Counted from the first letter of the stretch, positions 1 through 63,300 are shown. The stretch is 64,000 bases of DNA from Amoebophrya sp. A120 (GCA_905178155.1 CAJINV010000004.1:5000619-5064618), one strand, 5' to 3'. Notes: generated by a model from the letters alone, not told the origin. Numbers and translations are program-made.

Positions 1-75
1 CAGGTCTAGCTGGTATCTGTTTTATGCATGGCAAACTATTTCAACTTTGTCGATTTCAACTCTGACACATCCATA
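1..75. mobile_element. Partial introner (right end), family D
   Basis: Ends ...TTTGTCGATTTCAACTCTGACACATCCATA, nearly identical to the right end of element 62478-62786. Left end is outside the window. Confidence 0.75.
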
Positions 76-2451
76 GACAGGCGTTCTTCGGTATCTTCCC
101 CATCCAGCTCTTCGTCTATTTCTTCTGGAGGTTCCGAGCTCTGCTCGACGAAATTCTCTATGTCACTGCCGTCTTCTTCCGTGTGGTCGTCGGAGGACTT
201 AATGTTGTTTATTGTTGAGGATGAGGGCCTAATATCATTCTTCTTTGGTGGTGCGCCTGCGCGGTTCAGTATGATCGGGATCTCGGTGAAGGTTCCGATC
301 GTGGGGGTGGAGGCTGCGGGAATGTTGGAGATCTTTTCTCGAACAGAAGATATTTTCGACTTCGGATTCGGATCTTTGTCTACTTTCGAAGTTGCACCAT
401 TTGATGTTGTTCCCTTAGCTGCAGCTCCTGTTGCCGACGACGTGTCTTTTTCCTTATCCTTATTTGCAGCAGGTATGGTACTTCCTGCTCCATAGAAATC
501 GTTCCTCACGGTAACCGGCTTGGCGTCCTGCTTGCGACTACTGTATCGCTCGCCCCGGGCCGTGTTGATCTCCTTTTTCTTTCCATTCGGAGATAAAATC
601 GGGCCGCTACCACCGTTGCTTATTCCCCCGCTCTGCTGTAGAAGTTGTCCTTCCCTCTCCTCCATTTGTGCCATCCCCGGCTGCGCCTGCCGGTAGGGAC
701 TGGCGTAAAAGGAGCTTAGCCCGTGGGCGTTCACCGCGTTTTTCGACCGAAACGGAAACCCGTCCGACGACACCGCGCCCGGAAGGTTGACCGCTAAAGG
801 CGTTGCGTTTGCGGGTGCGGGGACGATTTTCTCGATGGATAAACTGGGCGTCGCGTTCAACTCGAGAAGCCAGGGCTTCATGTTTTGGTCTAACAGAATG
901 TCGATCCCGATGACGTGGTTAAACGTCACATCCGCGTTGCCGAACTTCAAATCTTCGCTTAAAGCCTGCACCGCCATCAATTCCGTGAGTAAACTGGGGG
1001 AAATTGCGAGCAAAATCTTTTTCGTGATCTGTTCCATCTGCTGCCAGAAGGTGGCAATGGAGAACTTCCCCGGGTACCGTTTTTCCAGCAACGTCAACGT
1101 CGAAGACAATAGTCTTTTCGACTTCCCCTCCCGAAATTGCAGCGATTTCTTGTTGATCGCGTAATTTGTCAAATGACTGGACTCGTTTTTCGCCCGGTCG
1201 TCCTGGTGATTTGCGCCTTTGTACTTCGTTGTACAGAACCGGGCCAAGCCCTCGCGATACAGCAACGCCTTCAAGTGCGGCATCACCTCGGTGACCACAA
1301 TGTAGAGCCGCAAGTCGAACTTCAGCCCGTCGAGTAACAACGGGTTCTCCACGTATTGCTGCGCGACGGATTTCCGGCCGTTCCCGCTGATGTGGAACTT
1401 CTCCATGTGGTTGTTCAGCTCGGCCAACCCCCGGCAGAGGAAAATCCCGTGTCCCTGCGTGCCAAATTCCGGCTTTACGATCAACGTGTTTTTCAGCCCG
1501 TGCTTGGGGTCGCGGCAGTCTCGGCGTAAGAGCGCTGCTTGGTCGGGGAGAATGTAGGTCTCGGGCACGTGGAGGTCTAAGTCTTCCTTGTCGAAAAACG
1601 GTTTGACCACCTGGAGTAACCTGTGAAACCTAACTTTCTCGCACACGTCCGCCATACCGGGAATTTTCGTGACCTTCACGAAGGGCTGGGCCTTGCCTTG
1701 CGCGGCGGATTTCGGTTTGGTGATGGTGTTCCCGCTCGCGGTTTGGGTTTTCGTCGTGCCTGTAAGGATGAGGATAAGCATGTGTAGATCTTCATTGTAG
1801 TCCTGGATTCTGATGCAGCTTATGCTTTTCTTTACCGAAGACGAATTTGACCTGCGTCCATATTTTTGCTGGAAGACGAGGGCGAGGCCAACTACGACGC
1901 ATGAGAGAAACAAAGTGTGTGAGCGAGAAAAATATTTTTACAACCGTAGAAAAAAAGCCCTCGCGAAACGGAAACCTTCAAGAACTCGAACGTACATGTA
2001 AATGTATTTTCTTCTTACCTTCCCCGTTCCGTATCACAGACCTTAGATTTCTCTTCGCCCCCGCGCGCAAGTGCAGCTGGCGCAGCAGCGCGTTTAACCC
2101 GGCTTCTTCCTCCCGCGCGCGGCCCATGTCGGACGCAACGACGATGTCGCATTCCTCCTTGTTTTCGCAAAACTCGTAACCAAATTCCTGCACGATGTAA
2201 TTGAAGAGTGGGCGGGCGGAGGGAGAGGCCAAGTAGACCTTCATCTTGGTCGAGGCGGCGGGTTTTTCGTCGGTCGGCATGATTAGGGTACTGTCGTAGC
2301 TTGTGACGTTGTCGGGGCAATTAATGTGGGGACGGGGCGTAACTACCAAGAACGGAAGGGGAACTGACTGACTGCCATCGTATTTAGAAGTTAGTTCAGT
2401 AGCCGGTAATAGTGCTGCTGCGAGCAAGCAGATGATGGCGGGTCTTACCAA
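76..2451 (-). CDS. Tubulin-tyrosine ligase (TTL/TTLL) family ATP-grasp protein; spliced, 3' part continues beyond window start
   Basis: TTL motifs PETYILP, LIVKPEFGTQGHGIFL, AQQYVENPLLLDGLKFDLRLY, EGLARF, HLTNYAINK, GIDILLD..PWLLELN..PS. A GT-AG intron at 1760-2018 (GAA G|GTAAGA...TTACAG|GC) joins ORF 1978-2451 to ORF 36-1913. The frame is interrupted at 75 by an introner end. The true start codon is uncertain (frame open to ~2553, no ATG). Confidence 0.85.
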
Positions 2452-5413: not shown

Positions 5414-8400
5414 TCAACCCTGTCGTTCCTCCGTCTGCGTCCTCCCACAGCACGGCTTGCACACCCAACTTTCGGCGCATTTTGCCTTCACCGTATCCAC
5501 GTGCATGCTAAAATCCCCCTCGCTTTTCGGTGGGCCGAACATGAGCAACATCGACATGAACCAACCGACGGTGAACACTAACGAAAGGAACACCGTTAAG
5601 GAGATCATGGTGGCCATCTTGGTAAAGAAGGTCAGCGTGCAGGCGAACATCAGAAGTCCTGCAGCCGCGGTGGTGGAGGCACCGGCGAGAATGGTGCCGC
5701 CCATGTGGCGCAGGGAATACCTGGATTTTTGTTTGTGAAATTTTATTTCAGTGTTGACACTGTAGCTGTAAGCATTAATCACGAACTTCAGCGCCGCAAC
5801 GAACATCACCACAAGGACGAGGAAGTAGTAGATGTACATGAAAAAAGATCTGCATCTTCATTGAACCACGACAGCTCTAAAAGTACTACCTTGACTTCGC
5901 TAGCCTGCCAATCAGCCCTTCCTCGGTGGCTTCGCCCCAGATGTGCCCCATGTGCAGGGTGTAGTCGATGGAGAAACCAATCACAATGATCCCGCTGATC
6001 ACTTCCACGGCCCCCAACGACCACCCCAAAGCGTATTTGAACGTCCCGTATGCATTGCAAAAGTCTCGTACTAGTGTAAATTGCATCACAAATTTTGTCA
6101 AGAAGAAAAATGGAATTTGTAATGCTTATTTACCTAAAAAGGGATATTTGTCATGCATGATAGCAATTACTACGAGTACAATACTTTTGCACAGGATATC
6201 CCCATCACCACGCCGACAATCTGCACAATCGTCAACATGGCAAGCGAGGAAATGATCCAGTTCTGCGTCGCGAGTAGCAACACGCAGTAGGAAATCGGGA
6301 AACAGAGCGACAAACCCCGCATCAAGGTCTATGAAAGTACACAACTCCCCCTCCCCCTCATTTGTCATGCCAAACGCCTCATTTACGCCCTGGCTCTTGG
6401 CACTGTTTGCATGACAAGTTCTAGCAGCCCAAATAGCACAACAATCTTGCGGCCGAAATTTGTCATGCAAAACCGGTAATCTTGCTGATGCTTGTGCTGC
6501 TGTTCATGCAATACACGTGAGGGGGAGGGGGAATTGTGCACTTTCATAACGTCTCCAACAAGGCCACTTCCACCGCGTACCAGGGCCAGGACAAAGGGGT
6601 GGTCTTGTATGAACTGCAAAAGCATCGTACTCGTACTGCAATCATGCATTACAAATCTTTTTCCTAAGGTAAATCCGCATTACAAATTTGATCTCTCATG
6701 TTGCTGAGGGAATAAAAATTTGTAATGCATTTATACGAGTACGATACTTTTGCAATGCATATCTGGATCGGCGGGCCCATCTGGGAGATGGTGGGCAGCG
6801 TGTCCGCAATGGCCTCGTATTTGTCGTACAAGTCGCCTCTGGTCTTGTGCGCCTGCAGCATTTTCAAAGTCGACCGGTGCGACATGGAAATGTACTTGAT
6901 TTGATCGTTGATCACCCCGATGTGCTTTTTCCAGTGCTCGGGGATGTTGTCAGAGTTTGTTGAAGGGGAATGCGTTCCCGGTTTCTGGGTTAACCGAAAT
7001 TCCTTCAGAGCTGTTGCGAAGTCGGTTTTTGATGCGAAAATCTGCTTGTAGTTAGATGTCGAAATTTGCGTTGCGTTCCCTGTAGTTGTTCCAGGAGTTG
7101 TGATGGTGTAGTTCCCACTGGCTTGTAAATACGCCAAAAATTCGTTCATCGGACACAGATGCGTGTCCAAAATCGTCAACGGCTTCTGTCCGTTGATCAG
7201 AGCAGTCGTAGGCGGTTCGCACCCGTGGTGGGCGCAGGTTTTCTGCTGCATGTCTGTGCACGCTTGGACCAGCTCCGGAAATCCTTCGTAGTAGTCGAAC
7301 TGGGCCCGGTACTGTGGTGTCCCCCGGTTTTTGAAGGGGATCCACTTGTTGTAGTCCTCCCGGTCGATGTACTCGGAATTTTCGTCGAAACCGTAGGTGA
7401 TCGACACCGGGACATATTCTGTTGTGGGTTTGGAGAGAAACAACTGCGACTCCCGAGTTGAAAAGTCGTTGTACATGTGTCCGTCCGGAAACCATTTCTC
7501 CTCTTCGACCGGCGGCTCCAGTTGCAGCGCCTCGGTGATGCCGTAAATCGCCCAGCACGAGAGGCCGAAAGCGATCAGGAGCGGGATGGGGAAAATTCGG
7601 CAGGTGGAAGAGGATAGCAGAGACATGTTTGGGCTCGCGGCGCCAACACCCGTTGTGGGAGTGGTGGTTGGGGTCGACGACGTGGCGTCGATTTTCCTTG
7701 TAGAGGAGACACGAATTTCTGTAGATTTTGTCGTCGCGGCACCATGATCACCTGCGGCAGTAGGGCAACTATTATCGCCTTGTGCTCCTGCTTCTATCCC
7801 CGCCAAATCTTTCGTGTTTGACCGCGACGCCTGTCTCGATACGTTTTTACTGGACGTTGTGTCGACTGACTCCCGCAACATCTGCTTGATCCCATTTCGC
7901 CGGAAGGAGACTGATTTCGACTCCGTGTCAATCCGGACCTCGAGCAGAACCAACATCACCCAGTACCACTCCCAGTAAGACTCAATCTCTGTGCCGTCAT
8001 AGGAGTTTTGCGTTTCCTGCTCATCGGATAGTTGTAGTACATTCGCAAGTTGATGTTCTCCCTCCAAAATTCTCCCTGGCTCAACGTCAACACTTGACGT
8101 CGCAGCTGTTGTAGTTGCGCCGACGTCGACGACCACTGGCGGCGCGCCGTACGCAGGCGTGGTGTCGCGGGAGTCGTTGAGGGCCGCGTCTTTGCTGTGC
8201 TTCAAATCCACCACTTGCGTCGCGTCGCCGACGATAGGCAAAGCAGGTGCGCCAGCTTGTCCTGCTTTTCCTGTAGTCCCGCTACTTTTTCCCCCATCAT
8301 GATGAACAACCTGCGCCACCTTGCAGCAAGCGAGTTTGAAACAAAAACATCCGTTTCTCGCGCAGCACTTGCAAAATTTCGAGTCGACGAAAGCCGTGTC

Positions 8401-11245
8401 GGCGAGGTAAAGCACCGCGGGGAGATTCACCATGGCGAAAATGTAGTTGCTAATGATCAACAGAGACGCGTAGATCCCGAACCCACTAATCGGCATAATG
8501 GGCGAATATGAGAGTGCACAACTCCCCCTCCCCCTCGTTTGTCATGCAAAATCCCAAATCCAGTTGCTGCCTTGTAGCACTGGTTGCATGACAACTTCTG
8601 GAAGCCCAGACAGTATTACAAAAGGCGCATAAATTTGTCATGCATAGGCTCCATGTGTGCTGGTGTCTGTATTGCTGCTCATGCCATACAAATGAGGGGG
8701 AGGGGGAGTTGTGCACTGTCATACCGAAACCGCGGTCGCGATGAATGCCGCCGTTGTGGTGAAGGACGTGTTGAACACGGCAACGTAAGCTCTGTTCAAC
8801 GCCTTCAACAGCGCGAGTTTGTATTCCCGCTTCGTCAACGGCTCACTCACGTCGAACTTCGCCTGTTGGATTTGCACCTTCGCCGCTTCGTAGCAATCGG
8901 ACAAGACGAACACATCGTCCGCGCCGATTCCGCAGGCGAGAAAGAGGCCGGTGATGTGGAGCTGGGTGAAGTAGAAGGCCTGGCCAACGACGCGGTACCA
9001 GAACAGCGCGAAGGGCAGGGTGAGGGAGATTTGCGCGACCGCGACGGAGGCGAGAAACGCGGATCTGGTGTGGAGCATATGCATTGCAAAAGTGTCTGGG
9101 TCTGGAAACTTGTAATGCTGCGTTGGGAATAGTGAATGCTCTGTAATGCACAGGCAAGCATGAGAAATGTCTGCGCTTCTTTGTGTTGCGTTTTTGGCAT
9201 GACAAACTGCGTTTTTGCATGACAGGCAACAGGGTCTCTTCTTGGACACGCATCACAAACTTTTTGGTCATGCCAGACAAGCATGACAAATGCAAATCTC
9301 GCACTCTCCCAGATGACCCAGACATTTTTGCATTTGATAGAACAGAATTAAAAGCCAAACGGCAAAAATCGCACCCATGATGAAGTTCTGATCCTCGACC
9401 ACCGCCCGCTGGAACTCGACTTGGCGTATCGCCAGCTATGAACTGCAAAAGTATGTATCGCACTCGCATAAATGCATTACAAATTTCCTCAGCATGACAA
9501 ATAAAATCTGTAATGCGATGAATTTACCTTAACAAAAGGATTTGTAATGCATGATTGCAATAAGAGTGCGATACTTTTGCACAGGATACCAGCCCGTGGT
9601 ACGCCATCTTGATCCCGAGCGCGTCGTCTTTGAAAGCTTCGGAATCGGACAAATGCGACCCCTCAAACGGAGCCGCGACCTTGAGGCCAAACCGGCTCGC
9701 GATCCGCTCGTTATTACAGTGAAATATGCCCCCACCCCCAAAGTTGAAAAAATTTGTGATGCGAAGTTTCCAAATGAAAACTTTTTGCCATGCATGAAAA
9801 GAGTATGAATCTTTCTGATGCAGAGGCTAGGCGTGTATTGCATCGCTTACATGACAGGCGCCACCCTTGCTGGGGTCTTTTGCAATGCAAATTTTTGCTA
9901 TTCACGATTGGAAACCTGTGATGCTGATAGATGCAAGCGGGCAAGCGTTTCATTTGGAAAGGTTTGCAATACAAATGCTCCCAAGTTCGGGGGTGGGGGC
10001 ATTTTTCATTGTAATACTCGTCGACCCGCATCCAGAGGTCCCGGAACGTGTCGACGAATTGTTCGATGAATTTGTCTATGAACTGCAAAAGCAACGCACT
10101 AGTATAAATTGCATTACAAATTTGCTCAGCATGAGAAATAAAATTTGTAATGCGGATTTACCTTAGGAAAAAGATTTGTAATGCTTGACTCCAATTACTA
10201 CGAGTACGATACTTTTGCACAGGATATTGTCTTCCTCCGCCGTGTACCCCGGTGCCGGAGCACCCAAATGGATCAGCGACCGGGTTTTGGTGGAAAAGGG
10301 GCGTGGATTCGTGCTGGTCTGACTGTTCAGAAACTCTTTGTCCACAAAATACTGGTACAACGCCTGCTCCTGCCCGGTGGTCAAAGAGCTGTTCGTCGCT
10401 TTCGTGTAGAGCTCCTGTTTCTTCGAGGAAAAGGTTACGGCATCGAGCAGCGGACAGCTGTAGTCATTCAAGTTTCCGTAGAAGAAGTTCGCCAAGCTCG
10501 CGGCATTTAACACGCAGTCTGTAAAGGGTAAAAACCCGGGGACGTGCGAGGTTCCGTTCGTGGACTGTTTCAGCAGTCTCGTTGCGGCGTTCCCCCGCCA
10601 ACAGGTCTTCGCGTAGTCTTCGTCTTTCGTGACGTAGGATTCCATTTGACAGACGAACTGCACAAACTGCGGAGTGAAAATCTCGGAATCCGACTGCTTG
10701 AAGAACAAAAACGTGATCGAATTCCGGTAGCTGACTTGTGTGTAGGCCGCGGTTTGGTCGGTCAAGCCGAGATTGTTGTTGTCCGATTCCCGGACAAGGA
10801 TTTGTGCCTCTTTCAAACAGTCCGTCTCCCGGGCGATTTGACTGTCGATCGGGTACCAGGCCACAATGCCCGCGTCCTCCGTGATCAGACTGATTCCCGT
10901 GATGGAAACGTGCGCGACCAAGACGAAAACGAAAAAGCATACGCAGCCGAAAAACCCGCAACACTGCTTCCAGGGCCGTTCCACCGCCCCATTGGCGATG
11001 CGGTACCGGAGCCGGCGGGAAAAATAGGGGTCGGACTCGCCGAGGGTGAGCATCTCCTCCGCGAGCCCGAGGGTGGCACCGATGTTTGCAGTCGTGATCA
11101 TTGGCGGAGAACCTGGTGGAGGTAGGCTGCTGGCGTTGTTCTGCATTGGCTTTTCTGTTTCCGCCGAATCCGCGGCCGCGGTGTTGAAAGTGGTGGTCAT
11201 CACTTCGGGGTCGTTGGGACTCACTACCGAATCAGAAGTGGGCAT
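5414..11245 (-). CDS. Dispatched/Patched-family RND transporter with sterol-sensing domain, 10 exons, ~1,337 aa
   Basis: TM4 motif GIGADDVFV, TM10 motif GFSIDYTLH and GGTILAGASTT. Removing 8 introners (each plus 5 bp) and GT-AG intron 5721-5889 leaves 4014 nt in one frame. Joins include EEDKFIE, VDERIAS, LILFHTRS, TAVSPIMP, ETLMRG, VMGTFK and KSRYSL. Confidence 0.9.
6049..6198. mobile_element. Introner family A (150 bp)
   Basis: TATGCATTGCAAAAG...CTTTTGCACAGGATA; flanks TCCCG/TCCCC; removal restores frame. Confidence 0.85.
6330..6548. mobile_element. Introner family C (219 bp)
   Basis: TIR TATGAAAGTACACAACTCCCCCTCCCC; flanks AGGTC/ACGTC. Confidence 0.85.
6608..6761. mobile_element. Introner family A (154 bp), opposite orientation to 6049
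   Basis: TATGAACTGCAAAAG...CTTTTGCAATGCATA; flanks TCTTG/TCTGG. Confidence 0.85.
8507..8723. mobile_element. Introner family C (217 bp)
   Basis: TIR TATGAGAGTGCACAACTCCCCCTCCCC; flanks GCGAA/CCGAA. Confidence 0.85.
9078..9339. mobile_element. Introner family B (262 bp)
   Basis: TIR TAT-N4-TGCAAAARTGTCTGGGTC; flanks GAGCA/GAACA. Confidence 0.85.
9437..9588. mobile_element. Introner family A (152 bp)
   Basis: TATGAACTGCAAAAG...TTTTGCACAGGATA; perfect direct repeat CCAGC. Confidence 0.9.
9712..10016. mobile_element. Introner (305 bp)
   Basis: TIR TATTACARTGAAAWATGCCCCCACCCCC; perfect direct repeat CTCGT. Confidence 0.9.
10077..10226. mobile_element. Introner family A (150 bp)
   Basis: Perfect direct repeat TTGTC; removal gives AEEDKFIE. 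Confidence 0.9.
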
Positions 11246-13164: not shown

Positions 13165-16100
13165 CTAATAATACAAGTCTTCGCTTGCCGAGCTGCTCTG
13201 TACGCTTCCGCTGGGATCGATGTCGTCCACGTCGTCCGTAGCACCATCGTCCGGCTGCCCGAAGGCCGCAAACGGGTTTGCGGACCGGTTCATATTTCCG
13301 CCTCCGCGTGAGGTTCGTGGATTGAGGACCCGGTTGTTCCGCAACATTGGACTTTCCGCCCGTGCCGGCGGGAGGTTCAACGCGCGGGTGGAAGACCGGC
13401 GGGTGGTCGATGCGCGTGTGTTGTTCTGGTTCGAGTACGAACGCGGGCCTGCGTTTATTGATCGGTCCTGCATTATATTGCTGACGAAATTGGTTGTTGT
13501 TTCCCGATCTACTTGCGATGACAGTGTAGGCTCAACATTGCGGCTTGATACTCCTCTTCCGGTTGTAGTGCTTCTGCGAGAAGCTGAGCCACCACCTCCC
13601 ATCATCATGCCTCCAAGCCCCAGCGCCGCCCCAGGACTGGAATTAATCACCGACCGTCCGGAGGCCGAGGCGCCACGCAATCTATCCCGCGCGATCTTTT
13701 GCTTCGTAATCCCATCCCAACTCGCGAACGTCGCTTTCGCGAGTAATTCCCGCCTGCAATTCCTGTAGTACCGCAACACGTTTGCTCTGTGCGCGATCAA
13801 GCTCCACCGGCGGAGAATGGGTCGCATGGACTTCGCGAAGTTCTGCTCCGCGAGCATGCGTTCTAAATTGTCCACGCACATCTCGTGCCGCTCGCTCAGC
13901 TGCTTCATCGGGATGGTGACAATGAACCACTGGAGCAAAACCCGGTTCATTAAGAGCTTCTGCTTCACGTCCCCGAGTTTCTCCGCGTGCATTCTTGCGA
14001 ACGACGCCTGCATTCGCCGCATCCGCCACGTCCGGAAGAGATGCACTTTGCGCAATTTGTGCTTCGAGGCCGAAAAATCCGTCAATGATTCGGTCAGCTG
14101 GAACCGCGATTCCGCGCAGACTAACTTCCACCGGTAAAGGATCTCGGATAACAGCGACATGTTGTTCAAATCGTTCCGGGCGTTATCCTGTGCAAAAGCA
14201 TCGTACTCGTAGTAATCCCATTCATGCATCACAAATTTCTTTCTCAAGTTAAATCCGCATTACAAATTTTATTTCTCATGGTGAGGAAATTTGTATTGCA
14301 ATTCATACTAGTACGATACTTTTGCAATGCATAGGCGTGAACCAAGGACAATTTCGCCGTTGTCGCCTTCTTCAAGTTCGCGTTCAACGCCAACCGGGTG
14401 AACGAACTGAACAACTTCGCCCGTCTCTGGTGTCGGTCGCTCAGTTTGAACATGTGCGCCAAGTACATGTTTCGATCCGCTTCCCTTTGCAGTTGCAAAC
14501 CGACATGGGCGGAGTGCTTGACGCAGTGTCGCCACGCGTGGAAGATCTGAATACACAACTTCGCGTCGTGCGCAGCGGAGAACGCGGCGCCCACCCGGGA
14601 CAAGGCTTTCCGGGTGCGAATCTCGCTGTACTGGAGCTTGTCTACCTTGTCGACGTGGATATGGATTGTAAAAATGTCTGGATCTGGAAGGTTGGGACTT
14701 GTAATGCTAGCTTTTCATACCTAGAAAATCTGTATTGCATATACGAACAAAAGTCGCAGCCTCTTTTGTCATGCAAAGTCGCAGTTTCTCATGCGGATTG
14801 CCTATGAGAAAGCGTTTTGGGAAGTTGTCATGCCGGACTGCATTCGGAAGTGTTTTCATCATGCACATTTTAGCATCACAAGTTTCCAGACCCAGACATA
14901 ATTTTTGCATTTCATAGTGGATCAACGTCTGCCAGGATTGCATCACGTACGACATTAAATGCTTCGTCGTATCCTGTGCAAAAGTATCGTATTCGTATAA
15001 ATGCAAGTCTTGCATTACAAATCTTGTTCTGAAGGCAAATCCGCATTACAAATTTTCACTCTCATGCTGAGGGCATTTGTCATGCATTTATACGAGTACG
15101 ATACTTTTGCAGTTCATACGTCGTCGCGTCCAACAAATACGCGAAATGCTTCTCGATCCGTTTCTGCTTCACAATCTCCGTGCGCCAGCCCTGGAAACTC
15201 AGCTTCTTGATGGACTTGATGTGGTGGGTCGCGATTAATTTATCCTTCTGGTCAAAATGTCGGTCCTCATTGCTCTTATGCGCGTTGTGGTACCGCATGC
15301 CGTCCCGCCACTGCTTGAAGTAGCCGTAAAGTTCCGCCGCCGCAAATTTCGCGTTTTTCTCGGTCAACGCCGCGATCGCCGCCATCGCCTTCTTTTTCTT
15401 CTGCTCCTTCACGTACCGCAGCCACACGTCGAAAATCGTGTGCATCGACCGGCCGGCGAGGTGCTGTAAGAACAGAACATCGACCCCGTTGCTGAATTTC
15501 TCCTTATCCGTGCTGTGCTTCTGCCGGTGCTGCTTCACCCGGACCTCATGGATCCCGTGCAGCGCGAGTTTGTGCCACGCGTGGACCACCTTCCGCTTAC
15601 CACGGTCGGTGTGGAGATCGAGTTTCCCAACGACCGACCTGGTTTGGACGTTTTTCAAGTGCCCTTTCAACTTGTCCGTGACGAAGCGGAATCTTTCGTG
15701 CTTCGTGGATTCCTTCCAGGCTTTGAAAAAGATCGTTTTTAATTGCGTGCTGTCCGTGATGTCGATCATGTTGTGGAGGGATTTGAGTAGCCTCTCCGCG
15801 TTGGTAATCGATTTGATCTCGATTTTTTCCTTCAGTGCTTCCGTCTTCGCGAGAGTTGCCTGGTAGATGATTTCCTTCCAGATTCTTAAAATCTGCAACT
15901 GCAAATTCTTATCGTTCTGCGCTAGCGCGAGTTGGAGTCGCCTGTAACTTGCCGATTTTTGCGCCTCCTGCTTCTTTTTCTCTACCGCTTCGTCCTCGCG
16001 TCGTTGCTTCTCCTGCGCTGTGAATCCCGCCCAAGTTTGAAACGTTACCCTTTGTTGCCAACTGTGCAGCTTGGTGGCGAAGTCCAGCGCGTGCTTCTTC

Positions 16101-27054: not shown

Positions 27055-27120
27055 GTTGAAGTGATGTTAGTGCTAGTGCTTTTTTGTTGAAGTGATGTTA
27101 GTGCTTCTAGTGCTTTTGTT
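27055..27120. repeat. Short imperfect tandem duplication (~31 bp x2)
   Basis: GTTGAAGTGATGTTAGTGCT..AGTGCTTTT repeated, intergenic. Confidence 0.7.
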
Positions 27121-27331
27121 CTAGAGAATGAATGAGAACCGAAGCGGAAAAAAAAAAGCATCTCTAGATTTCAGAATGGCCGCAAATTTGTCATTGTCCG
27201 CCCTGTGTTAAGTACTTGCTCGTGGTCCTCGTCTCGTGGTCCACTTTTTTATCACTACCCCTGCATCATCGAGACAACTTCTTGCAGAAGCAGCGTAGGT
27301 ATCATTTTTTATCGCTTTTGGTTTTGCTCAA

Positions 27332-45300: not shown

Positions 45301-48300
45301 CTGTTGTTCTCTGCAGCTTGTAGTGGGTGCTGCGGGTCTGCAGCGTCTTGAAATCTCACACGATGAGATCCTCTACTACCCTTAGAACTACTACTTCCTC
45401 GGCCTTGTTTATTGCTCTTTTTGCCCGCCCCTCGCTGCAAGGCTTGTTGTGCCCTTAGCCGCTGGTGTGCCTCGTAAGAGTTGGCCCCATCCTGGTCGAT
45501 GCGCTGGGCAAGCTGTCGTGCAGACGGACCGTCCGTCGCGAGCAGGCCGTCGGAACTACTCCCGTCTGTGTGCAACAAGCGGCTGCGCAGGGTGGCAACC
45601 TCTTTCAGGTCCAGCGGCTCCTCCCGGAGCGCGCCGGTGAATTTGCCGCGCCGCAAAAGTTGCGCGCCAGCATGTGCCTTCTTCTGCGCCCCGCCCAAGA
45701 GCCGCCGGAACCTTCCCGTTTGTATCAAAAGCAAAAATCCCCCCTCCCCATATCGAAAAGGTATGTTTCCGAGAATTTGCGTTGCTGATTTGAGGTCGCA
45801 AATCACATCTGTACTACAAGAAGACAAGGGCAGAAGCTTCCGCCCCACTATGGAAGCGATTTGTCATGCTGTTGGCCCTAAAAGTGACCCGCTTGCCATG
45901 CTGAAAAACTAGACCCATACGCCCCGACCTAGCCTGGGGATCTGACCGCAGTGCCTCTCTGCAATACAAAGCTGATTTGTGTACACAAATCCGGCATCAG
46001 AAATTCCGTTTTGATATGGGGAGGGGGGATTTTTCCTTTCGATAGTTTGCTGCTCGCCTTCGCCCTGGTCCGTGCTGATGCCTTCGTCCGAGAAACGGGA
46101 TAAAACGTTCCGCAGTTCTCTTGCGGTTAAATTCTGAAACACAATGGTCCAGTTGTCCTTGTTTGTCGAGCGGAAATACCGAATCAGCTTTTTCGTCGAG
46201 TCGCGAACCCGCTGCAGAAACCGCAGGTGTGGTGTGCCCGCTTTCGTTGCTTTAGACGCGCCCGACGCATTATTTTTTCCACCTCCGCCGGGTCCTCCTC
46301 CCGCGGCTTCCAAAACCTTGGCCTGGGCAACGTGCTCCGGCGTGGTGTGTACTTTCAACGCCTCGGAGATCCGCTTTACCGCGTTCCAGGCGGCAACCCG
46401 CGCGTCCGTGGCCCTTTTTTCCGCTGCAGATTTGGTACTGCTTTCGTCCTCAAATTGGCTCCGCTGGTAGAACGAGGAGGTTCGCGAAGTGGTGCTCTCG
46501 TCGCTGCTGCTGCCGGCATTCGTGCTTTCTTCGTAGAGATTGAGATTGTTTTTTAGTGATGAACCTGTGCTGCCCATCATACCAAATTTACCAGCTCCAC
46601 CGCGGCCACGGCGGGAAGCAAATGGACCAAGCGCAAAGTTGTCAAGCTCCTCCCAGCCCGCACCGGACAGAACTGCGGTTATTAAACCTGCTTTGTCAAC
46701 ACCCGGCTCATCTTCGCCTCCGCCTGCAAGTTCGCACGACGCATCATCTGCAGACTTGCATCTGCGCGTGAAATGTCTGGCCTTCTGTTCTCCTATTCGC
46801 TCGGCCAGATCCAAGAGGCCAGAAGCAGCATCGGTACTTCTAGGACCACGGGATGAGGAAGAGAATCCTGGTGAGCCAGCAGCGCCAGGTGATCGTGGGC
46901 CAGAAGATCTGCCGCTGCGCCCACCACCTCCGCCGCGATGATTGGGAAATAATCCCCGCCTTCCGGAAAAGGGCAACGCCATGTCAAACTCAGAGGGCGT
47001 TTCGTCGCCACCGTGAACAACATAGTCTTCGTCTTCACTAAACTCGCCTTCGTTCTCACCTCCCTGCGAGATAGGCAAGATCTCCTGATGCTTTACGGCT
47101 GCTCCCGCCCTCGAACTAGAACTCGCTTCACCGCCGGCTTGTCCGCGAGACGCACCAGCAGTGGGAGAGGGCTTCATGCAGCTTTTTGGAACCTTCGGAA
47201 TCGAGCCCTGCTTTTCCAGTGCTTCTGCGGTGAGTTTGGGGCGCGTAGTTTTTGCTCCTGAGGGAATTGCTTGTTCATCACAGGCCTCTCGTCCCTCCTC
47301 TTCCACTGGTTCCTCAGAGCCCACGCCAACATCTGACGGCTCCGGCGACGGTTCTCCGGAGCGGCTTTTGACGGACTCCACATCTACCATGGCCGCGCTG
47401 AGGCCGAGAGCCGTGCTGTGTCGCGACGTCGATCGCGAGGACGTCGTGAAGGTGCGCTGCATGTCGCTTTGCGGAGTCCCACTTTTGTATTGCTCGAAGT
47501 AGCCCGCCGCTGGTTCCGACGAGCCACCGTCACTGGGCTCAGGCGTGATGTTGCGGAGGACAGGATCTTCTCCAGGACGAAGGCTGACTCCTCTAGTAGC
47601 TCCTATGCCTCGTGATCCAGCTCCTGCTTCTTGTTCTTCACGAACAGCAGCTTGCGTACGTTCCTTTTCCGCTTCTTGTTCCAACTCTACTTCTTGCCGC
47701 TTTTGTTCCGCCAGCTCCTCTTGTCTCTTCGCCTCCGCAGCCTCCTTTTCCCTTCGCTCGGCCAGTCGCGCGCCGTACGCGTCGACGAACTCCGTTAACT
47801 TCGCTTGCAGCGATTCCCAGTCTGCGGAGAAGGATTGCTTTTCTTCGTCCACATCCATAGCTGATTCGCCCGGAGCCGGTTTTTTCCTGGCAATGTCGCC
47901 GTGCACCACAACATTCTTGTCTTGGTACAGGAGTCTGTCGTGCTGGTCTGGGACTAGCAATTTCCCCGTTTTCGAGTCCAGCCAGGGATTCGAATAAGAG
48001 CTGCTTGCAGCTCCCATCAGTTGTTCCGCAACACTAGATTGTTCATAATTATCTATCCCAAACAACCGGTCCTGAATGCGCAGCAACATGTCCTCGAGCT
48101 GGGTATCGTCTTCCACACCGAAAGCCTCGTACATATCTGCGTACGTCTGCACGTCGGGTTGCACCTGCCGCAGCCAGTAGTCGGCCGCGTTCACGGAGAC
48201 GACAGTCATATCTGCGTCGGAAACCACCGGAACCGCATTGGCTTTCACGAGCGTCAACTGGTTCTCGTCAAGCAGGTTTAAGTTCCTGCTGTGCAGTCTC

Positions 48301-54300: not shown

Positions 54301-57300
54301 AACCCGCCAAACGCAGCGGTGTTTGGTTCGGGAGAGACTTGCCCAATTTCCGGACTAGTAGTTACGACACTTATCGCAGTACCTGGCTGCAAAACGGGCG
54401 TGCTGGTTCCCCGCACGATCGGCAATTCGATATGCAGGCCTGGAAGCGGCAAATTCAGATGATCCGTCGCCTTTTTAGCCGAGAAACTGAACAAGTTGCT
54501 GGCGGTGGCTTCGTCCGACACAAACTTCGTGCCGAAGCGGTCAATCCAATTCTGGCTCTTCTCCAGCTCCCGATACCACTGCGTCACGACCAACTCGCTC
54601 TGGTCCCACGTCATGCCAGCATCGGTGAAAGTTGTGAAGCCCCGCGTGCGAAGGTCGTACAGCTCTTCGACGACTCGGAGGATTTCTTCGTCTTTCCACA
54701 GAGTTCTTGTCGTTGTCGCACTTCCGCTTGGAGCTGCTCCTGTAGTTGATGGAGGAATTGATGAGTCGTGGTGGGTGAACCGAAGAAAGCTCGGGGACGC
54801 GGCGCCGCCGGGCGAACGGTAGCCACTCGGCGTCTCCAGCTGCACTCGCCCGAGCCAATCGCGCAGGTGATTCCGGCCGGTGGGCGCGAGCTCGCGCAAC
54901 CCCCCGTACTTGTCCCATTCCTTGTGGTACTTTTCGGATTTTGGCACGCGCAAAACCTCCACCTGGTCCACGACCTTGCTCAGCGGGAGCCGACGTCTGA
55001 CGGCCGGCGCGCCGGAAGAACCATCCCTGGGCGGGTCTTTCTGTCTCCTGCCGAGGAACTCGCTCACGAGCGGCGCGAAGTCGGTTTCCGTGGCGCGCGT
55101 CTGCAACACGTACGCCTTGCGGCTGGTGATATCCACGAGCCGCTGCGTTTCGACCAATTGATCGATGTTGCTATTAATGTTGTCCTATCCCGTGCAAAAT
55201 TAGCATCGCACTCGCAGTAATGGCAATCGCAGTCATGCATTACAAATCTCCATCCCAAGGCAAAACAGCATGACAAAATCCATTTGTCATCATGCTGAGC
55301 TAATTTGTATTGCAACTACTACTAGTACGATACTTTTGCAGTTCATATGTCCAAGTACGCCCGCGCCACCTGCTGGCGCCGCTTCAGCGCTTCCTGCCCG
55401 GGGGACGGCGCCTGCTGCTGCTCCGCGGTGTCAATAAGCGCAGAAGTACTAGACCCCCGTTCTTTCGGTGGTGCGGAAATGGCGATCAGGAAATCGCGGG
55501 TCTGCACCTCCTTTTGAATCGCGAAGCTGGCGCGCTCCAAACTCAGTTTCACGTCCATTTTGCGGTCAAAGTGCTTCAGGGTGCCGCTATCGGTTTGGAT
55601 TCGCCACCAAGCCTGGCCCATGTAGGCAGGACCCGCGAAGACGGAGTCGAGGGAAACCGCGGCTTCGAAGTAGATCATAGGACCATCGTAAGCACCGTTA
55701 ATCTGTTTTTCCAAAGTAGTATCCATGTGACGGGTGACAGTGAACGCCTTGTCGTTGCGCAAAGCGTCCATCGACGCCATGCCCATCTGCGTCAAATAGA
55801 ACGGGTTCTTAATCGCGCGCAGGCCCAAGTACTTGCTCTCCACGTGCGCGCGCAGCTGTACTTCCACAGGGAGCTGCTGGTTGCTCTCGTCTCCTGTCGT
55901 GGAAGATACGCCGCCGCCACCGGGGAGCTTAGCCTTTTCGCCTGCGTCTTTTTCGATACGTTTTCGCATGTTTTCCCAAAAATCTTTCTCTGCGTAAATG
56001 TCACTTTCGAGCAGGGGTAACAATTCAGGCACCGGATTCAAATCGTCCCAGTCTGCGGAACCAGGAAACCGGTGCACCAACTTCAGCAGCGCGCCGCCCC
56101 GCAACTTGGCGAACTTTGCACCGGTATCCTCTTCCGCCGGGGGTATCTCCGTGCCCGCGAAGTCCCAAGTCACGTCAGAAAGCCAGGCTTCGTACTTCTT
56201 CAGTGTTTCCTTCTGCGTTTCCCGCTCCACATGTTGTTTTTGACTGTTTAGGATTTTGATTTTCTCTTGCGCTGCTCCTATTGCCTTTTTGTTTTCCTGC
56301 AGTTCGTCAACGGATGGCATCGTGGTTCGGGAAATAATTTTTTTCACCTGCATCAACCGGTCGAGGTCACCTTGCTGTTCCCGGATTTCTGTGTCCAGTT
56401 CCTTATTTCTCCTCCCTTTGTCCGCCACGCTTTTCTCGATCTCGCTGCGACTGCGGTCCAGAAACAACGCCCACCGCTCCGCGATCGCCAACAGCGTGTT
56501 TTCCTCCCGGATGCGGTCTAAAGGGTCCTGCTGGTGCAGGTCGGTGGCGTACTTGCCCATAAAGTACGCGCCACCAACATATCCACAGTAAATTTCCCGC
56601 ACACGCACAAATGCGGTCTCTGCATGACAAAACTTGGCTTCGATCCTAGTTTAGCATGACAAGTTTTGCGCTCCAAATTGGTAGAATTTGTGATGCATCT
56701 TGTACATGTACGGGAAATTTGTATTGCATACAACAGCCGCGCCAACGCCGACGAGGGCTGCGGGCACCGCGAGTACCGCGCCCGTGAAAAACGTGACCCC
56801 CATGAAAAGGAAGGAGCTCGCAGCATACCCCAGCGCGCCGCCGGCCGCGCCACCAGCCACCCCTTTGCCGACTTTCTGTGCGTGGAACGCATTCCACTTG
56901 GCGGAGAACGCCTCGGGGTCAAACGCGTCGGCGAGCTTGCTCCGGAAGCTCTGGAACTCGAACAAAAAGCGGGAATACAGCAGGTCCTGCGTTTTGATCA
57001 CAACAAGCTCCCCTTCTTCGAACTGTTGCAGCCGCTTGGCCTCCTCTTTCTCGGAATCTAGTTTGTACTTTCGCAACCGGCTCAGGTCGTTGTCTTTTTC
57101 CGAGCCGAATCCTGCAGATAGTGAATATTGCACCGCGTGGTCGCGTCTCCCCGCGTCAAGCACGCTGGCGGCCAATTCTCGGTGATGAACCGCAGCAGAA
57201 CTAGCCGGCGTTGGGCTATTAGGCGTACTAGGACCTTCATCTCGTCCCGGTTGGACATCTCTTGCGGCACCGCCGGTACTAGGTTCTAACAGCTTCAGAA

Positions 57301-60300
57301 TGTCGCTTTTCTTTTCCTTGTTGAGCATCTTCACTGGATCAAGCAGTGGCTTCTGTGCGTCCAACGAAGCTGCCGCTCCGGAGGAAGCCACATCGAGAGA
57401 AGAATCCACCAGCTCCTTGCCCTTCTCGCCATCGAGAATGTCAATCCAGCTTGCAAACACGTCGACTTCATCCTCATGACCGGCCGGATTTGTGCTTTGC
57501 TCATCTCTACCGAGTGCCGTCGTGTACTCTTCTATCCCACCCGCACTCCCGAATCCTTCAGACACCATAGCGGTGATCCTCCCCGTGCCTTTTTTGCCCT
57601 GCCGCGCCGTCCGCCCCAGTGCCTGCGCCTCCTCGCGACTCTCTGCCAAAAAGGTGAGCTCCACATGCAACCCCCCGTACTGCTCGATCGCTGCGGTGTC
57701 GTAGTCCGTGCCGCGCCCCGCCAGATATCAAATGCAAAAACGTCTGGGTCTGGAAGTCATGCTGTTTTTGCATGACACAAAATGTCTGCCATGGAAGCCC
57801 TAGCATCACAGATTTCGCTTCAGCAAAAGGTGCCCACATCCGATGTGGGCACCTTTTGCTGCCTATGCATGAGAGATTTATCTTTTTTGTGAAATGCGCA
57901 TCACAAGTTCGCATCCTTCCTGACCCAGGCATATTTGCAATGCATACCAGGTTGGTGGACACAATCACCATGCCCGGTTCGAACGGTGCCATTTTGACCT
58001 CGCCCACGTCGGCATTGGACTGGCGAAGGTATTCGATAACTTTCGTCTGCTCCCATTCCCGCTTCAAGGAAGTGGAAATCTGTGTGGCGTGCTGGATGCT
58101 GCGGCAGATGCAGAGCACCCCGCGGTCCCTTCTAAGTTCCCTTACGACATTCTCCACCACGGTCGCCACCCACCGCGATCGCTGCGACAAGACTCGACGT
58201 GCAGTTCCGTTATCGTGATGAGCCACACCGGAGTCGTCCGCTTCTGACATTATTTCGCTTGGGTCATAATTTTCGCCGTCGGGCAAGAACTGCCCTTCCT
58301 GCTCCGAAAACGCCCCTCCTCTCCACGACCCCGGCTTGCTTCCCGGCGCACCGCCGCGAGCCGCCACGCTTCCCAAAACCGCCGGCACCAATGTCTCGGG
58401 CCCGATCAGATCCGGTGCGTATTCCAAAAAGCGCTTGTCCCGCGATAGGGGCATCAGCCGGGACGAGAGTTGGTACGTGGACTTCAGGCTGTTGCGCACC
58501 GCGCGCGAACCGAGGGTTCCCGTGACACCGTAGACGAACTTGTATCTGCGGAAGAAAGCGAAATTGGACAAGAAATTCGTCGGCAGGGACTCCGGCGTGA
58601 CGGGCAGTTGGTGCGCCACCTCGAGCGTCTGGTGAATCCCGTCGGACCAGTGGAGGGACTCTTGCGTGATTCCTGTGGCACCGGACACCGGCTTAACGGC
58701 GTTGTCCTCCACTACGTAGTCGATGTTCTCCTTGAACGTGAAGTACGCGAGCATGGCGGACTTGACCAGGCGCGGAATCGTGTCGCGGATGTGCTGCTCC
58801 CAGTGCTTCGGGATCTGGATCAAGCCAGCAGAGTGGTCGTGCTGCTGGTGATGTTCTTGGTCAGCAGCTGCTTTCTTGGCGCTAGTACTTCCTCCTTTCG
58901 AGGAACCCTGCTCACCAGCGCCTGAGCCAACGGAGGTTTGCGCAGCTCCACTGTCGAAAGTAAACAGAGACGAAGCAGCCTTTGCACTGTCCTTGATGTT
59001 CAGAAAATCCGGCAAGCGTTCCGAGGGAGGAGCCAATTTCACCGGCCGCCCACCGGGAATCGGTGCATAGCCAGCGTGCAAGAGCAGATCTTCCGCATGG
59101 CGGAACGTCGTGACTGGCGGGTTCCTGTTTCCTGCTGTGGGGGGTTCTTGGACTCCTGCCGAAGCCGCGGGAGTTGTGCCGCTTACATCTTGTTCTTCGG
59201 GAATTGCCTCCATGGGACGCGGGGGAACTGGTCCTTCTTGCTGTGTTTCGCCACTGCCCTGGTCGACCTCCATAGGAGCTGGACTAGCGCTCGCTGGTCC
59301 TCCTGTGCTAGGGCCTTCTTCATGTGCTGGAGGAGGCGGCGACGCAGTAATATCAGCTGGTTGCGCGGTTGTAGAACTTTCCGTACGTTTCTTCGCACTT
59401 CTAGACTTCGTGAACAACGACCCCTCCGCCCTGATATCCTCGCTGCGCCAGTCGATGGCCCGCAGCAGGAACCGTTCGAGGTAGTCTTCCAGTGCTTGGT
59501 TTTTCTTTTCCATCTCCGCGTCGGTCTCGTCTTCTGGTGTCCCCTCCCCTCCGAGCTCGATCCCGACCTCGCTACCGCCCTTCTTGCGCACCTCGCGGAG
59601 CAGCTGGGACAGAGTCATGATGACGGTTCCTCTGGTGCGGCCCCGAGCAGCTGCTCCCGGTGAAAACATCGCGCTCGTTGCACTGATCCCTGCGCCCGTT
59701 GTAGAGGAGAGACGAAACTCGACGGAATCCTCGACTATCGCGGACGACCCGACAGAGTTGTTTGAGGGTCTTCTTGCTGTCAAGTTTCTTGTACCAGTAC
59801 CGCGGATTTTCCGCAATAAGTCACCGTACAGCAGCACCAGCCGCTTCTTCTTCCCCTCCGGAACGGGAATCAGCCGGTGCTGGAGCCGGTCAATCTCCAT
59901 TTTCAGCACGTGGTAAATCGGCTCCAGAAATTCCGCCCCCGGAAACGGCACGGCGACTTTCGCAGTCCTGGATAAGTCGTTTACCAGCATCATGTCAACT
60001 TCGTCGGCTAAAGCGACGTTGTCAAAACCAAATTCCAGCCGACCCATCGCGATCGCGGTGTTCATTTCCACCTCCTCTTTCAGAATCTTCGTCGCGAACG
60101 CTTTGTGGATGTTCCGGAAGTCGGTGTCTGGTTGGAAACTACGTTGTTCTTCACGCAGATCGTCGCTTTCCAGCACTGACTCGCTCGTTGTTCCGAAGAG
60201 GGCGGGGAACAGATTTTCTCCCGGCAAGAGAAAATGGTCCTCGAAGGCGGCAGAACCGGTCGATATATCGTTCGTGCCTGCGTGGCTTATCCGTTGCCAG

Positions 60301-63300
60301 AACCGAAACCACTCTTTCGTGTGCTGTGCTGGGGTATTCGAGGTCTTAGCGTCGCTCTTCGTTGGTGGCGTTGGTTCGACTTGGTAGAGCACGCTTTGAA
60401 ACTGCGGGTCTGCTCTTTCATCCGTAATATCTGGATCGTCTTCTCCGTCCTCTTTTCGTTGCCTGGGATGAATTGTGCTCGTCTCAACATGTCTCTTTGT
60501 TGATCGAATCGCCTTGACAGTGCTTCTGCGCCAGATTCCCTCGAGGGAGGTCACGGCTTTCTCTGCTCCCCCGTCGCCCAAGGAACTGGCCCAAAGAATC
60601 TCGGCCTGTTTGCGCTCCTCCTTCTCCGCAGCCTTCGCTGCTTGCTGCTCTGGCTGTTCCTCCTCCGGACGTCCGGCTGCTGGCATTTCAACGTCCTCCG
60701 GTTTAGCAGGCAACAACCTTTCGCGGAGCACATCGTTCACCCCCTCTGCGTACCTCGCGAGCTTGACACGGAGTCGGGGCAACACCGCCCCAGATTCTTC
60801 CAAATACAAGCGGCGAGACATAGCCCGTAAGCCGTTCTCTTCACGCACTATCGCATCATACTTCGCTTTTCCCGGTGTCAGCCGGTGGACCACGGCGCTA
60901 GGGTCATAAAACACCTCTATCGGCTTTTCTCGGCTCTCCTGCGACTCTTTCTCTTCATCATCAGCAGCAGTACCGGCGCCGGCTTGTTCTTCACCCTCCT
61001 TGTCGTGGCGCCCCGCCTTGTTGGAGTTCGCACTGAGTCGCTTCCCCCGGGGCCCTGCGTCGACGTTCGCTTCGTACTTTATCCAGTGCAAAAGTATCGC
61101 ACTCATAGTAATTGCAGTCATGCATGACAAATCTGGTTCGTGAGCTCATTCAGCATTGCAAATTCCATTTTCCCTTCTGGAAAAATTTGTGATGCTATTT
61201 CTACTATTAATACCATACTTTTACACTGCATATACTTCGCACCGTAGCGATTTCCGGTGGTTTTCTGGTGGTACCACTCGGATTTCAGGGCGTCGAACAT
61301 GAAATCAGCTGGATCGCCAATGGTGATCTCGCTCTCGTAGCACGCGCGTTTGGAAGAAGATGCAGAGGAAGAGGACTTCTTTTTGCTGGTAGTTGCACTG
61401 CCATCCGCTCCTGCTGCTCCCGAAGTAGACTGTGTGTTGTGAGAGATTTTCAACGCGAACGCCTCGAACAGGTTTTTGTTTTTCTCCGCATCGCGCACGG
61501 CAAGAACTGGGCTGCTGGTCATGATATCCACTTTTTTCCCGTAAACCAAGCTCATCAACACCGCCATACCGGCAACAATTTCCGTTTTTCCCTCGCCTGT
61601 CGCTACTTGTAACAGCGTGCCTCTCGTGAAGACGTCGCTCGCGACATTGGTCTCGCCAGAAGTTGCTGCTGGCGGGAAATAGAGCTTCATTCTGTCGTTG
61701 TCATCTTGTTGATTTTGTTGAGGTTGACCTTGAGCAGGTTTTATTGGGAGATCTTTTTCAGGTGTACGTCTCTCTTGCTGAAGCTGCTGCAACATTTCGT
61801 TTTCGAAAGCCTTCCGGTCGGCAAGGGGCGTGCCGTCGTGCAGCACGAACTGTTCGGCCGTTCCCAAAAAGTTCCTGCGCATCGCAGCCCAGTGCGACCG
61901 CAGGACCTCGACAATCGCCAGTCGCTGCACAAAATGCAGTTCGATCTGCCGCTGCGCCTTAATTCCGTAGAAGAAGACTTGCAGTGCCAGGGCGGAAAGC
62001 TTCTCGTAGACGCGCAGAACCATCCCAATACCCTTTTGCAAGACCGCCTGGACGCGGAGAAATCTCGCCTTTTCCCGCAACTGTTGGTACATTTGTTCTG
62101 CTTTTTCCCTAGTACCCGCAAGAAGGGATGCATTTCTGGTGTCCTTCGCTTTCTCCGCGTACTTTTCCAACACCCACCCGGCTACGTGGTTTTTAAACCT
62201 CGTCTCCTTGGCTGCAGTGGTCGGCGCAAGATTGGCGCTATTTCCACCAAAACCGATTGCGGAAAAAGCCATCCACGCGGGGAGCACCTCTCGCTCTTGC
62301 AAATCGAGGTGGTAAGTCAAGCTCCCACGTGGTCCGGAATGAGAAGAACTGGTCGTCGGCAAAAACTTTTCTGACAGCAGGAAATCTAGGTTGGCCATGT
62401 GGTCTGCCAGCTGTTCGCGCAGCCTGGGCGCCACCTGAGTTTTCATGTGGCTGCTCCAGTCGAGCAACTCCGCGCTCTATGGAAGTGTCAGAATCGAAAT
62501 TGACAAAATCGAAAAATTTGTGATGCACAAAATCGATGTCAGTTGGAGCCTCAGTTTCCAAGTGGCGCATGACAAATTTAGAGGGTACCCAAATCCAGTC
62601 TGTCATGCTGTTTGGGCAAAGAAGACTCCGCCTGTAGTGCTACTCTGGCAGCACATTGTATACAACCCCTAAACAGGCTTACAATCGGCCTCATTTGCCT
62701 GCTCCCCAATACAGGCCTCCAGTGCCCTGCATTTTATGCGTCACAAATTTTTCGATTTTGTCGATTTCGATCCTGACACATCCATACACTCGTCCAATGG
62801 GAAATCGGTTTCCAGATCCCGAGACGAGAAAGATCCACCCGGGTGTCATCTACTTGTACTTCTTCGACGAGCTGCCCATGCTCGCCTTCTTCACGGGCCT
62901 GTTCTTCCTCGCCTTCGCTATCCACCTCCATCTCGTTCATTGGTGTGTCCTCTTCGTAGTTTCCCCTCCGGCTTTCGCGAGGCGCAGGCACTTGATGATC
63001 CTGCGAAGAACCTCCGGAGTTTGTAACACTTCGTCCACCCTGCTGCCAGGGGTATCTCTCCACGGTGGGTGTGAACGTGTGCAGGCTGTTCAAGAGTTTC
63101 GCTACTTCCGTCTCCGTCCAGGAATCCGTGATTTCGTTGTGCAAGAAAAACCGTGCCACGATGTAGGGCCAGTTGTACACCGGCTGCCCGACGAGACGGA
63201 GCCCCGCGGGGGACCGGGCGATTTCCTTCGTGACAAAGTCTCGGAACCCGGCCCCGACAGACCCTTTCGCCAGGTCGTGCAGGATCTGCAGCACGCACTC

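Follow-up and report, generated by a model that had tools for sequence, protein, structure and literature searches.

In Amoebophrya sp. A120, about 30,000 introner elements have been described. Their inverted-repeat families start with TAT, followed by seven variable bases and at least three As, and have direct repeats of 3-5 nt, while the families of A25 start with TTA (Farhat 2021, PMC7789003). How the A120 introners are removed is treated as an open question in the text of that study and in a review (PMC11282704). Here I describe a stretch of 64,000 nucleotides from A120 (GCA_905178155.1, CAJINV010000004.1:5000619-5064618; hereafter the window, with positions counted from its first letter), in which 21 complete elements and one partial element of this kind were found. 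These are the published introner elements of A120 (Farhat 2021; Gozashti 2025, PMC12130899), and the system is already known. It was found that every element covered by RNA-type contigs is missing from them together with exactly 5 bp, the length of one copy of the direct repeat flanking it.

The likeness to the introners of Farhat 2021 (PMC7789003) extends to the inverted repeat, the direct repeat over the exon border (5 bp in Fig. S19), the hairpin, the many families, the RNA support, the neighbouring GT-AG introns and the comparison with MITEs (miniature inverted-repeat transposable elements). A preliminary description of the window, made from the sequence, had drawn the same link, and it is borne out. 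The elements carry an 8-20-nt terminal inverted repeat (TIR) that starts with TAT, seven nucleotides and an A-run, their direct repeats lie over the exon/intron borders and fall within the 3-5-nt range, and they form repeated families of non-GT-AG introns. Their terminal motif fits A120 and not A25.

In the tables of Gozashti 2025 (PMC12130899), family 38 of A120 is a TIR DNA element of about 808 bp with homology to Copia/Gypsy proteins (integrase-like) and the remark "5-bp TSD, TA/TA Termini", where TSD stands for target-site duplication. It is labelled Ginger in the table, yet it is said to be without Ginger termini. The 5-bp/TA remark is given there for one family only; the automated TSD calls elsewhere range from 2 to 11 or none. 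Family 65 is listed as Mutator-like, with a TSD of 8-9 bp and GG/CC ends, and family 200, compared by size only, has about 2,470 alignment columns and is near the size of the largest window element (element 13). Thus, the single rule for non-canonical introns that had been proposed for the window, TAT...ATA termini between 5-bp repeats, holds for these elements, but it is largely in print, and family 65 and the A25 families fall outside it.

The nonconventional introns of euglenids and the introns of Fritillaria borealis (PMC11282704) are also similar in that a TIR hairpin joins the intron ends, the repeats are TSD-like, the borders are non-canonical and a MITE origin is presumed. The euglenid introns have CAG/CTG at positions +4..6/-8..-6 and leave as circles, whereas the window elements lack CAG/CTG at these positions and end in TAT/ATA. 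The Fritillaria introns have AG-AN borders and use the U2 spliceosome, whereas no fixed border dinucleotide was found here except a U at +2 under the register inferred below. Relative to the text and tables covered, the present analysis adds the uniformity of the 5-bp repeat, the independence of orientation, the lack of selection for GU or AG, the splicing of a 2.5-kb foldback and a candidate register of the cut. Neither a fixed register nor a named transposase for A120 introners was found in the literature searched, which comprised the text and tables of open papers.

Window elements and the frames of their host genes

The window was scanned for N5-TAT...ATA-N5 with at most one mismatch in the direct repeat, a TIR of at least 13/20 and a length of up to 3 kb. 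This mechanical scan reproduced the earlier inventory of 21 complete elements (109-2,543 bp; 14 perfect repeats and 7 with one mismatch; Table 1), while 20 dinucleotide shuffles of the window gave 0-2 matches each, with a mean of 0.4. The partial element ends at position 75, and a relaxed motif scan of the window revealed no further convincing element ends. As for the at least four multi-copy families that had been reported, two stand on BLAST links, namely eight copies of a ~150-nt family and one pair of ~218 nt. The third group (elements 5, 10, 12 and 19) has a common terminal motif seen by eye, with BLAST support over at least 60 nt for 10-12 only, and the fourth is an end shared by element 21 and the partial element (45/75 ungapped matches). 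The remark that most elements lack usable GT-AG ends holds as well, as a GT-AG reading in any of six registers is possible for 1/21 elements, element 14.

All element-bearing genes lie on the minus strand. When each element is removed together with 5 bp, open frames of 1,238 codons (elements 1-8), 801 (9-11), 2,027 (12-13), 2,301 (14) and 5,896 codons (15-21) are obtained, and all 21 junctions lie inside them; removal of 0, +3, +4, +6 or +7 instead of +5 breaks the frames. Thus, the frame is restored every time, as had been stated. This includes element 19, which interrupts STN/LAGRGTD in a giant protein that carries the domains SecA_DEAD and SecA_PP_bind, so that the conserved TNLAGRGTD is recovered. 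For the gene with elements 9-13, one homologue was found, in Amoebophrya sp. AT5.2 (45% identity); its tblastn matches are collinear and flank elements 9, 12 and 13 on both sides.

Element 13, as the preliminary description does not mention, is a foldback whose arms are about 75-85% alike outside and about 96% alike near the centre. The TGATCATC motif of its terminal region reappears near the centre (18963-21505). Judging from this layout, the element looks as if two ~1.25-kb units had been placed head to head and recently homogenised.

Removal from RNA-type contigs

Eight public runs contain the stretch; none of them is registered as RNA, but four, X3 to X6, are probably RNA. X3, X4 and X5 are one sample, and X6 is a second sample of the same study. 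Contigs were aligned over 5600-19250, which holds elements 1-13; for elements 14-21, the evidence is the reading frames. An exact skip of element plus 5 bp was found at 12/12 short elements in X3-X5 and at 8/12 in X6, in which the other four are without cover. At element 13, 18962 is the last base reached by the pieces of each of the four runs, and the loose end seen in X3 is identical to window 21511-21540, which again corresponds to element plus 5 bp. Thus, element and 5 bp are missing at 13/13 elements covered, including the 2,543-bp foldback; the intron analysis described in Farhat 2021 (PMC7789003) spans 40-1000 bp. The cut lies within the direct repeats at 13/13, and splicing at nearby GT/GC-AG sites instead was not seen.

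Two ordinary GT-AG introns, 5721-5889 and 16121-16220, are likewise absent from these contigs, so that 15 introns are seen in the aligned region, 13 of the hairpin type and 2 of the GT-AG type. This agrees with the earlier statement that GT-AG introns coexist with the elements in the same genes. Since both GT-AG introns are also skipped, the RNA-type contigs are spliced transcripts. In contrast, the DNA contigs of run X1 pass unbranched from exon into element at a depth of 40-59, like unique sequence. The summed depth over elements is very high in X1, and none of the 15 joints listed, out of 382, is an exact removal. Taken together, it is well supported that the removal of element plus 5 bp happens at the RNA level and is guided by structure. 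At 14720-15175, the RNA-type contigs of X3-X5 reach a summed depth over elements 10-11 that is about 10 times as high as over the exons on either side, which may reflect copies from other loci or retained or excised introns.

A uniform 5-bp repeat without border signals

To extend the comparison, the terminal pattern of one family was used to retrieve 149 partly overlapping loci (798,522 bases) from assembly JACKZZ01, of which 21/64 parts were scanned; elements from about 100 to more than 300 nt are included. Among 435 distinct TIR pairs picked without a repeat filter, the 5-bp direct repeat was perfect in 308 and had one mismatch in 81 (389/435), while perfect repeats of other lengths were found in 9 (3 bp), 3 (4 bp) and 0 (6 bp). 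Thus, the uniform 5-bp duplication across families, suspected from the window, also appears in pairs chosen blind to the repeat. Farhat 2021 (PMC7789003), in its text, has repeats variable in length and position and splice sites variable or unknown, whereas here the length is uniform and one register fits.

With the repeat filter, 523 elements were collected, 355 of which were oriented by codon use and 168 dropped; the method was right for 21/21 elements in the window, which is its training set. The ~150-nt family lies in the gene direction in 55 cases and against it in 61. Copies of either orientation are spliced in the window, where elements 1 and 3 are opposed. The two element ends are symmetric, with A at positions 11-13 in 311-332 of 355. 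G at repeat position 5 (83/258) equals background, and AG at positions 3-4 was found in 23/258 against a background of 7%. The GT/GC...AG ends of U2-type introns are possible in any register for 21/355 elements. Neither GU nor AG is under selection at the element borders. Because the ends are symmetric, the orientation is free, G and AG are at background and GT/GC-AG is rare, the removal appears to read no exon-derived base.

Probable transposon origin

Repeats of fixed length and arbitrary sequence around TIRs are target-site duplications, which result from DDE transposition. The elements are short, have TIRs and a fixed-length TSD, lack coding capacity and occur in many copies, all of which are features of MITEs. 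It is likely that they are non-coding MITEs and owe their insertion to a DDE transposase that is integrase-like and cuts with a stagger of 5 bp. Quite probably, they are mobilised in trans by an enzyme that acts on TA...TA ends and is IS3EU/GingerRoot- or Ginger-like. A single enzyme may serve all families, as the preliminary description proposed. The termini of Ginger2 are of the TG...CA type, unlike the TAT...ATA ends found here. The 5-bp repeat agrees with the TSD of Ginger2 (4 or 5 bp; PMC10045372). The IS3EU/GingerRoot elements of the same source share TA..TA termini, TIRs and an integrase-related DDE enzyme class with the present elements, but they are not described as introns there.

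Several candidates for a longer, enzyme-bearing relative were considered. Above 3 kb, no TAT...ATA element of the window was convincing, and the 6.2-kb candidate in locus L038 proved to be a host gene that carries many small elements. Element 13 has no relative in the 149 loci. The integrase-bearing open reading frame (ORF) at 40360-44175 belongs to a Copia-type long terminal repeat (LTR) retrotransposon, which has TG/CA-type ends, and was rejected as the enzyme of the TAT elements. Candidates of 813-1,148 bp in the 149 loci have no significant match to the gag or pol of this Copia element, and three ORFs from the candidates, including the longest tested ORF of the elements in L008 and L050, have no Pfam match. 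A search for the terminal pattern in viral contigs gave no match.

The elements L008 505-1608 and L050 8355-9502 are 1.1 kb long and belong to different terminal families, while their internal region is common (87% over 543 nt); they are composite elements. At L030 6184-6998 lies an element of 815 bp, whose TIR measures about 45 bp; in size, the feature compared, it is near the published A120 families 38 and 196.

Position of the cut

Where the two copies of a repeat differ, the joint reveals which bases remain. In transcript sense, the upstream copy supplies positions 1, 2, 3 and 4 (seen at elements 1, 3, 5 and 2, respectively) and the downstream copy supplies position 5 (seen at element 4), with one form each in every run covering them. 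A single register, in which the intron is N+TAT...ATA+NNNN (the 4/1 register), fits all five informative junctions. Thus, the intron probably begins, at the 5′ cut, with a single base ahead of the hairpin's first U and ends, at the 3′ cut, with the four bases that follow its last A; in plus-strand coordinates, the intron would probably extend from element start-4 to end+1. Because the 5′ cut would precede the first U of the hairpin by one base, a U would always be present at +2, as in GU donors, and this is the most conserved base of spliceosomal donors. Under the 4/1 register, the 5′ dinucleotides of the 21 elements are 8 GT, 7 CT, 5 AT and 1 TT, and the 3′ ends are free. In locus L047 of JACKZZ01, a stop codon is gained unless position 4 is that of the upstream copy. 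Polarising the repeat mismatches by GC/AT to fix the register gave no consistent signal.

Table S4 of Farhat 2021 (PMC7789003), in which 9/9 top A120 pairs start with NT, was considered as support for the register and dropped, as the published 3′ ends are equally AN. Since such an NT/AN mirror pattern is expected from the choice of the aligner, the published junction tables give no independent support.

Under the 4/1 register, the insertion phase of the 355 oriented elements is uneven (171:105:79), with phase 0 the commonest (171/355). The same skew could arise if insertion favoured targets with a central A/T.

A proposal for removal and its alternatives

In folding predictions, hairpins were obtained for 20/20 short elements, with z from -2.5 to -12.6. 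The arms mismatch in 3-4% of cases at positions 11-13 but in 37-63% at positions 4-7. The hairpin would start with a short U-A/A-U/U-A stem at its ends, followed by a loose region of 4 bases and then a conserved A-tract/U-tract helix; its role in RNA is inferred from folding, not from selection. On balance, I lean slightly to the view that the elements are MITE-like hairpins removed, with one repeat's worth of sequence, by an altered spliceosome of the host, which would cut at a fixed distance from the hairpin instead of at GU and AG. According to Farhat 2021 (PMC7789003), nearly all spliceosomal proteins are present in this organism and U1 snRNA (small nuclear RNA) was undetected. It seems somewhat probable that the hairpin takes the place of U1 and of AG recognition and holds both ends together for the U2/U5/U6 core. 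As a speculation, the branch point may be one of the invariant As in the terminal ATA, located 5 or 7 bases ahead of the 3′ cut. More tentatively, and with slightly less confidence, the hairpin might serve as a ruler in the removal of tens of thousands of transposon introns in Amoebophrya, so that any TAT...ATA hairpin of 0.1-2.5 kb, whatever its orientation, would be cut 1 base ahead of the stem and 4 bases beyond it, no exon-derived base being read.

If the 5-bp repeat and the 4/1 register are general, they would provide a precise rule in place of "no clear splicing signature". For the ~30,000 introners, the rule would predict where the junction lies, that +2 is a U and which A is a candidate branch point, and it would correct gene models; a fixed cut would narrow down the removal machinery. 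If the ruler mechanism is true, the 1+4-base cut exactly undoes the 5-bp TSD. The geometry of splicing would then be matched to the stagger of one integrase-like lineage, and almost every coding insertion would be silent. Splicing independent of GU and AG would show how a genome tolerates mass transposon insertion into exons.

Some observations weigh against the proposal. The register is based on five junctions of one transcript in one study, and if the cuts were random, the chance of such a fit would be P ~0.08. A cut right at TAT is excluded by element 4 alone, in one sample, and a GT is available there. In the table of Gozashti 2025 (PMC12130899), NT makes up 69% of the 5′ ends of A120 family 2, and AN makes up 68% of its 3′ ends. 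In the JACKZZ01 loci, the repeat mismatches are in excess at third codon positions (73/631 vs 39/1144 elsewhere, 3.4-fold, P=0.004 against a 2-fold ceiling), and stricter frame calls give 3.8-4.9-fold. A fixed register does not explain this excess, because one copy as a free intron should give a ratio of at most 2; a sliding register or conversion with empty alleles could explain it. The terminal 3 pairs of the hairpin are predicted to be unformed in several elements, and the arm mismatches (G.U:A.C = 193:174, P=0.35) do not point to selection on the hairpin in the RNA strand. For X3-X6, the assignment to RNA is a guess. As for the origin, the TSD of IS3EU/GingerRoot (PMC10045372) is usually 6 bp, whereas it is 5 bp here, and no transposase was found in the window or the 149 JACKZZ01 loci.

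With the same transposon origin, the elements might be removed by a non-spliceosomal, structure-guided endonuclease together with a ligase, as in euglenids, leaving circular or linear introns; this corresponds to the dedicated removal system proposed in the preliminary description. In its favour, the removal requires no GU, AG or polypyrimidine tract and is independent of orientation, and the introns of 109-2,543 nt have only their ends in common; the nonconventional TIR introns of euglenids are reported to leave as circles without lariats (PMC11282704). I regard it as unlikely here. The altered spliceosome is favoured because, in the account of Farhat 2021 (PMC7789003), the spliceosome is nearly complete with only U1 snRNA undetected, and because the inferred register puts a U at +2. 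Another candidate guide is the repeat itself. The cut would slide within its 5 bases, and both copies would come under protein-level constraint, which would account for the third-position excess of 3.4-4.9-fold. The Fig. 3 legend of Farhat 2021 has splice sites variable relative to the hairpin, and contigs drop minor forms. However, the five informative junctions all fit one register with a single form per covering run, and the codon bias could stem from conversion with empty alleles. Thus, a sliding cut seems quite improbable.

The joined cDNA might also be an artefact of template switching by reverse transcriptase, the cell coping with the elements otherwise, for example by ribosome bypassing. 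Direct repeats with secondary structure are a known source of false non-canonical junctions (PMC4176328), and any 5-nt repeat contains one whole in-frame codon. This is very improbable, as one contig holds all 8 joints of elements 1-8 at full depth, the 2.5-kb element is removed too, and 340/355 elements would contain an in-frame stop codon if unspliced. Bypassing also fits poorly with the mismatches at first and second codon positions, which occur at least as often inside the shared codon (25/710) as elsewhere (14/434); by the same counts, an effect of the shared codon was rejected as the cause of the third-position excess. Finally, precise excision from DNA in part of the life cycle, like that of internal eliminated sequences, would yield exactly the loss of element plus one repeat, and the contigs would then come from an edited genome. 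The guessed RNA label and the small part of the DNA-run joints that is listed leave some room for this. Yet the same contigs lack the GT-AG introns and are hence transcripts, the X1 contigs run unbranched from exon to element at the depth of unique sequence, and the register is asymmetric with respect to the sense of transcription. DNA excision is accordingly hardly credible, and the altered spliceosome remains the reading that I prefer.

Coordinates and neighbouring features

Table 1. Elements and ordinary introns of the window. Direct repeats are given as left/right copy where the two differ; junctions are those of RNA-type contigs.
Feature	Position	Direct repeat	Junction or basis
Partial element, right end ...ACATCCATA then GACAG	1..75		Left end outside the window; end resembles element 21
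Element 1, ~150-nt family	6049..6198	TCCCG/TCCCC	6043/6199, skips 155
Element 2, ~218-nt pair	6330..6548	AGGTC/ACGTC	6323/6548, skips 224, ambiguity 2
Element 3, ~150-nt family, orientation opposite to element 1	6608..6761	TCTTG/TCTGG	6602/6762, skips 159
Element 4, ~218-nt pair	8507..8723	GCGAA/CCGAA	8502/8725, skips 222, X3-X5 only
Element 5	9078..9339	GAGCA/GAACA	9072/9340, skips 267
Element 6, ~150-nt family	9437..9588	CCAGC	Skips 157
Element 7	9712..10016	CTCGT	Skips 310
Element 8, ~150-nt family	10077..10226	TTGTC	Skips 155
Element 9, ~150-nt family	14184..14333	GGCGT	Skips 155
Element 10	14660..14916	GTGGA	Skips 262
Element 11, ~150-nt family	14970..15118	CGTCG	Skips 154
Element 12	16602..16870	GTCGC	Skips 274
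Element 13, 2,543-bp foldback	18963..21505	GACTG	Loose end in X3; no Pfam match in 5 internal ORFs
Element 14	32951..33153	CCTCC	Reading frame; sole GT-AG-readable element
Element 15	45073..45181	GCTCC	Reading frame
Element 16	45723..46044	GTTTG	Reading frame
Element 17, ~150-nt family	55186..55347	TGTCC	Reading frame
Element 18	56580..56730	CAACA	Reading frame
Element 19	57726..57946	CCAGA/CCAGG	Reading frame; splits SecA-like motif TN/LAGRGTD
Element 20, ~150-nt family	61080..61232	TACTT	Reading frame
Element 21	62478..62786	CGCTC/CACTC	Reading frame
Ordinary GT-AG intron, transcript of elements 1-8	5721..5889		5717/5887; cut at +3 reads CT..AC
Ordinary GT-AG intron, transcript of elements 9-13	16121..16220		Skipped

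The two ordinary introns, both on the minus strand, have 3′ ends that are A-rich and not pyrimidine-rich. The open frame with the SecA_DEAD and SecA_PP_bind matches lies at ~44850-64000 on the minus strand; it has at least 5,896 codons and runs off the window, and its product is not a normal SecA. The lineage is reported to be plastid-less.

The Copia-type LTR retrotransposon is located at 38579-44805 on the plus strand between two copies of GGTTC, and its LTRs are 98% alike over the 300 nt aligned. Its gag (39367-40356) and pol (40360-44175, with an RVT_2 match) are in one frame with a single TGA between them, an arrangement that suggests read-through.

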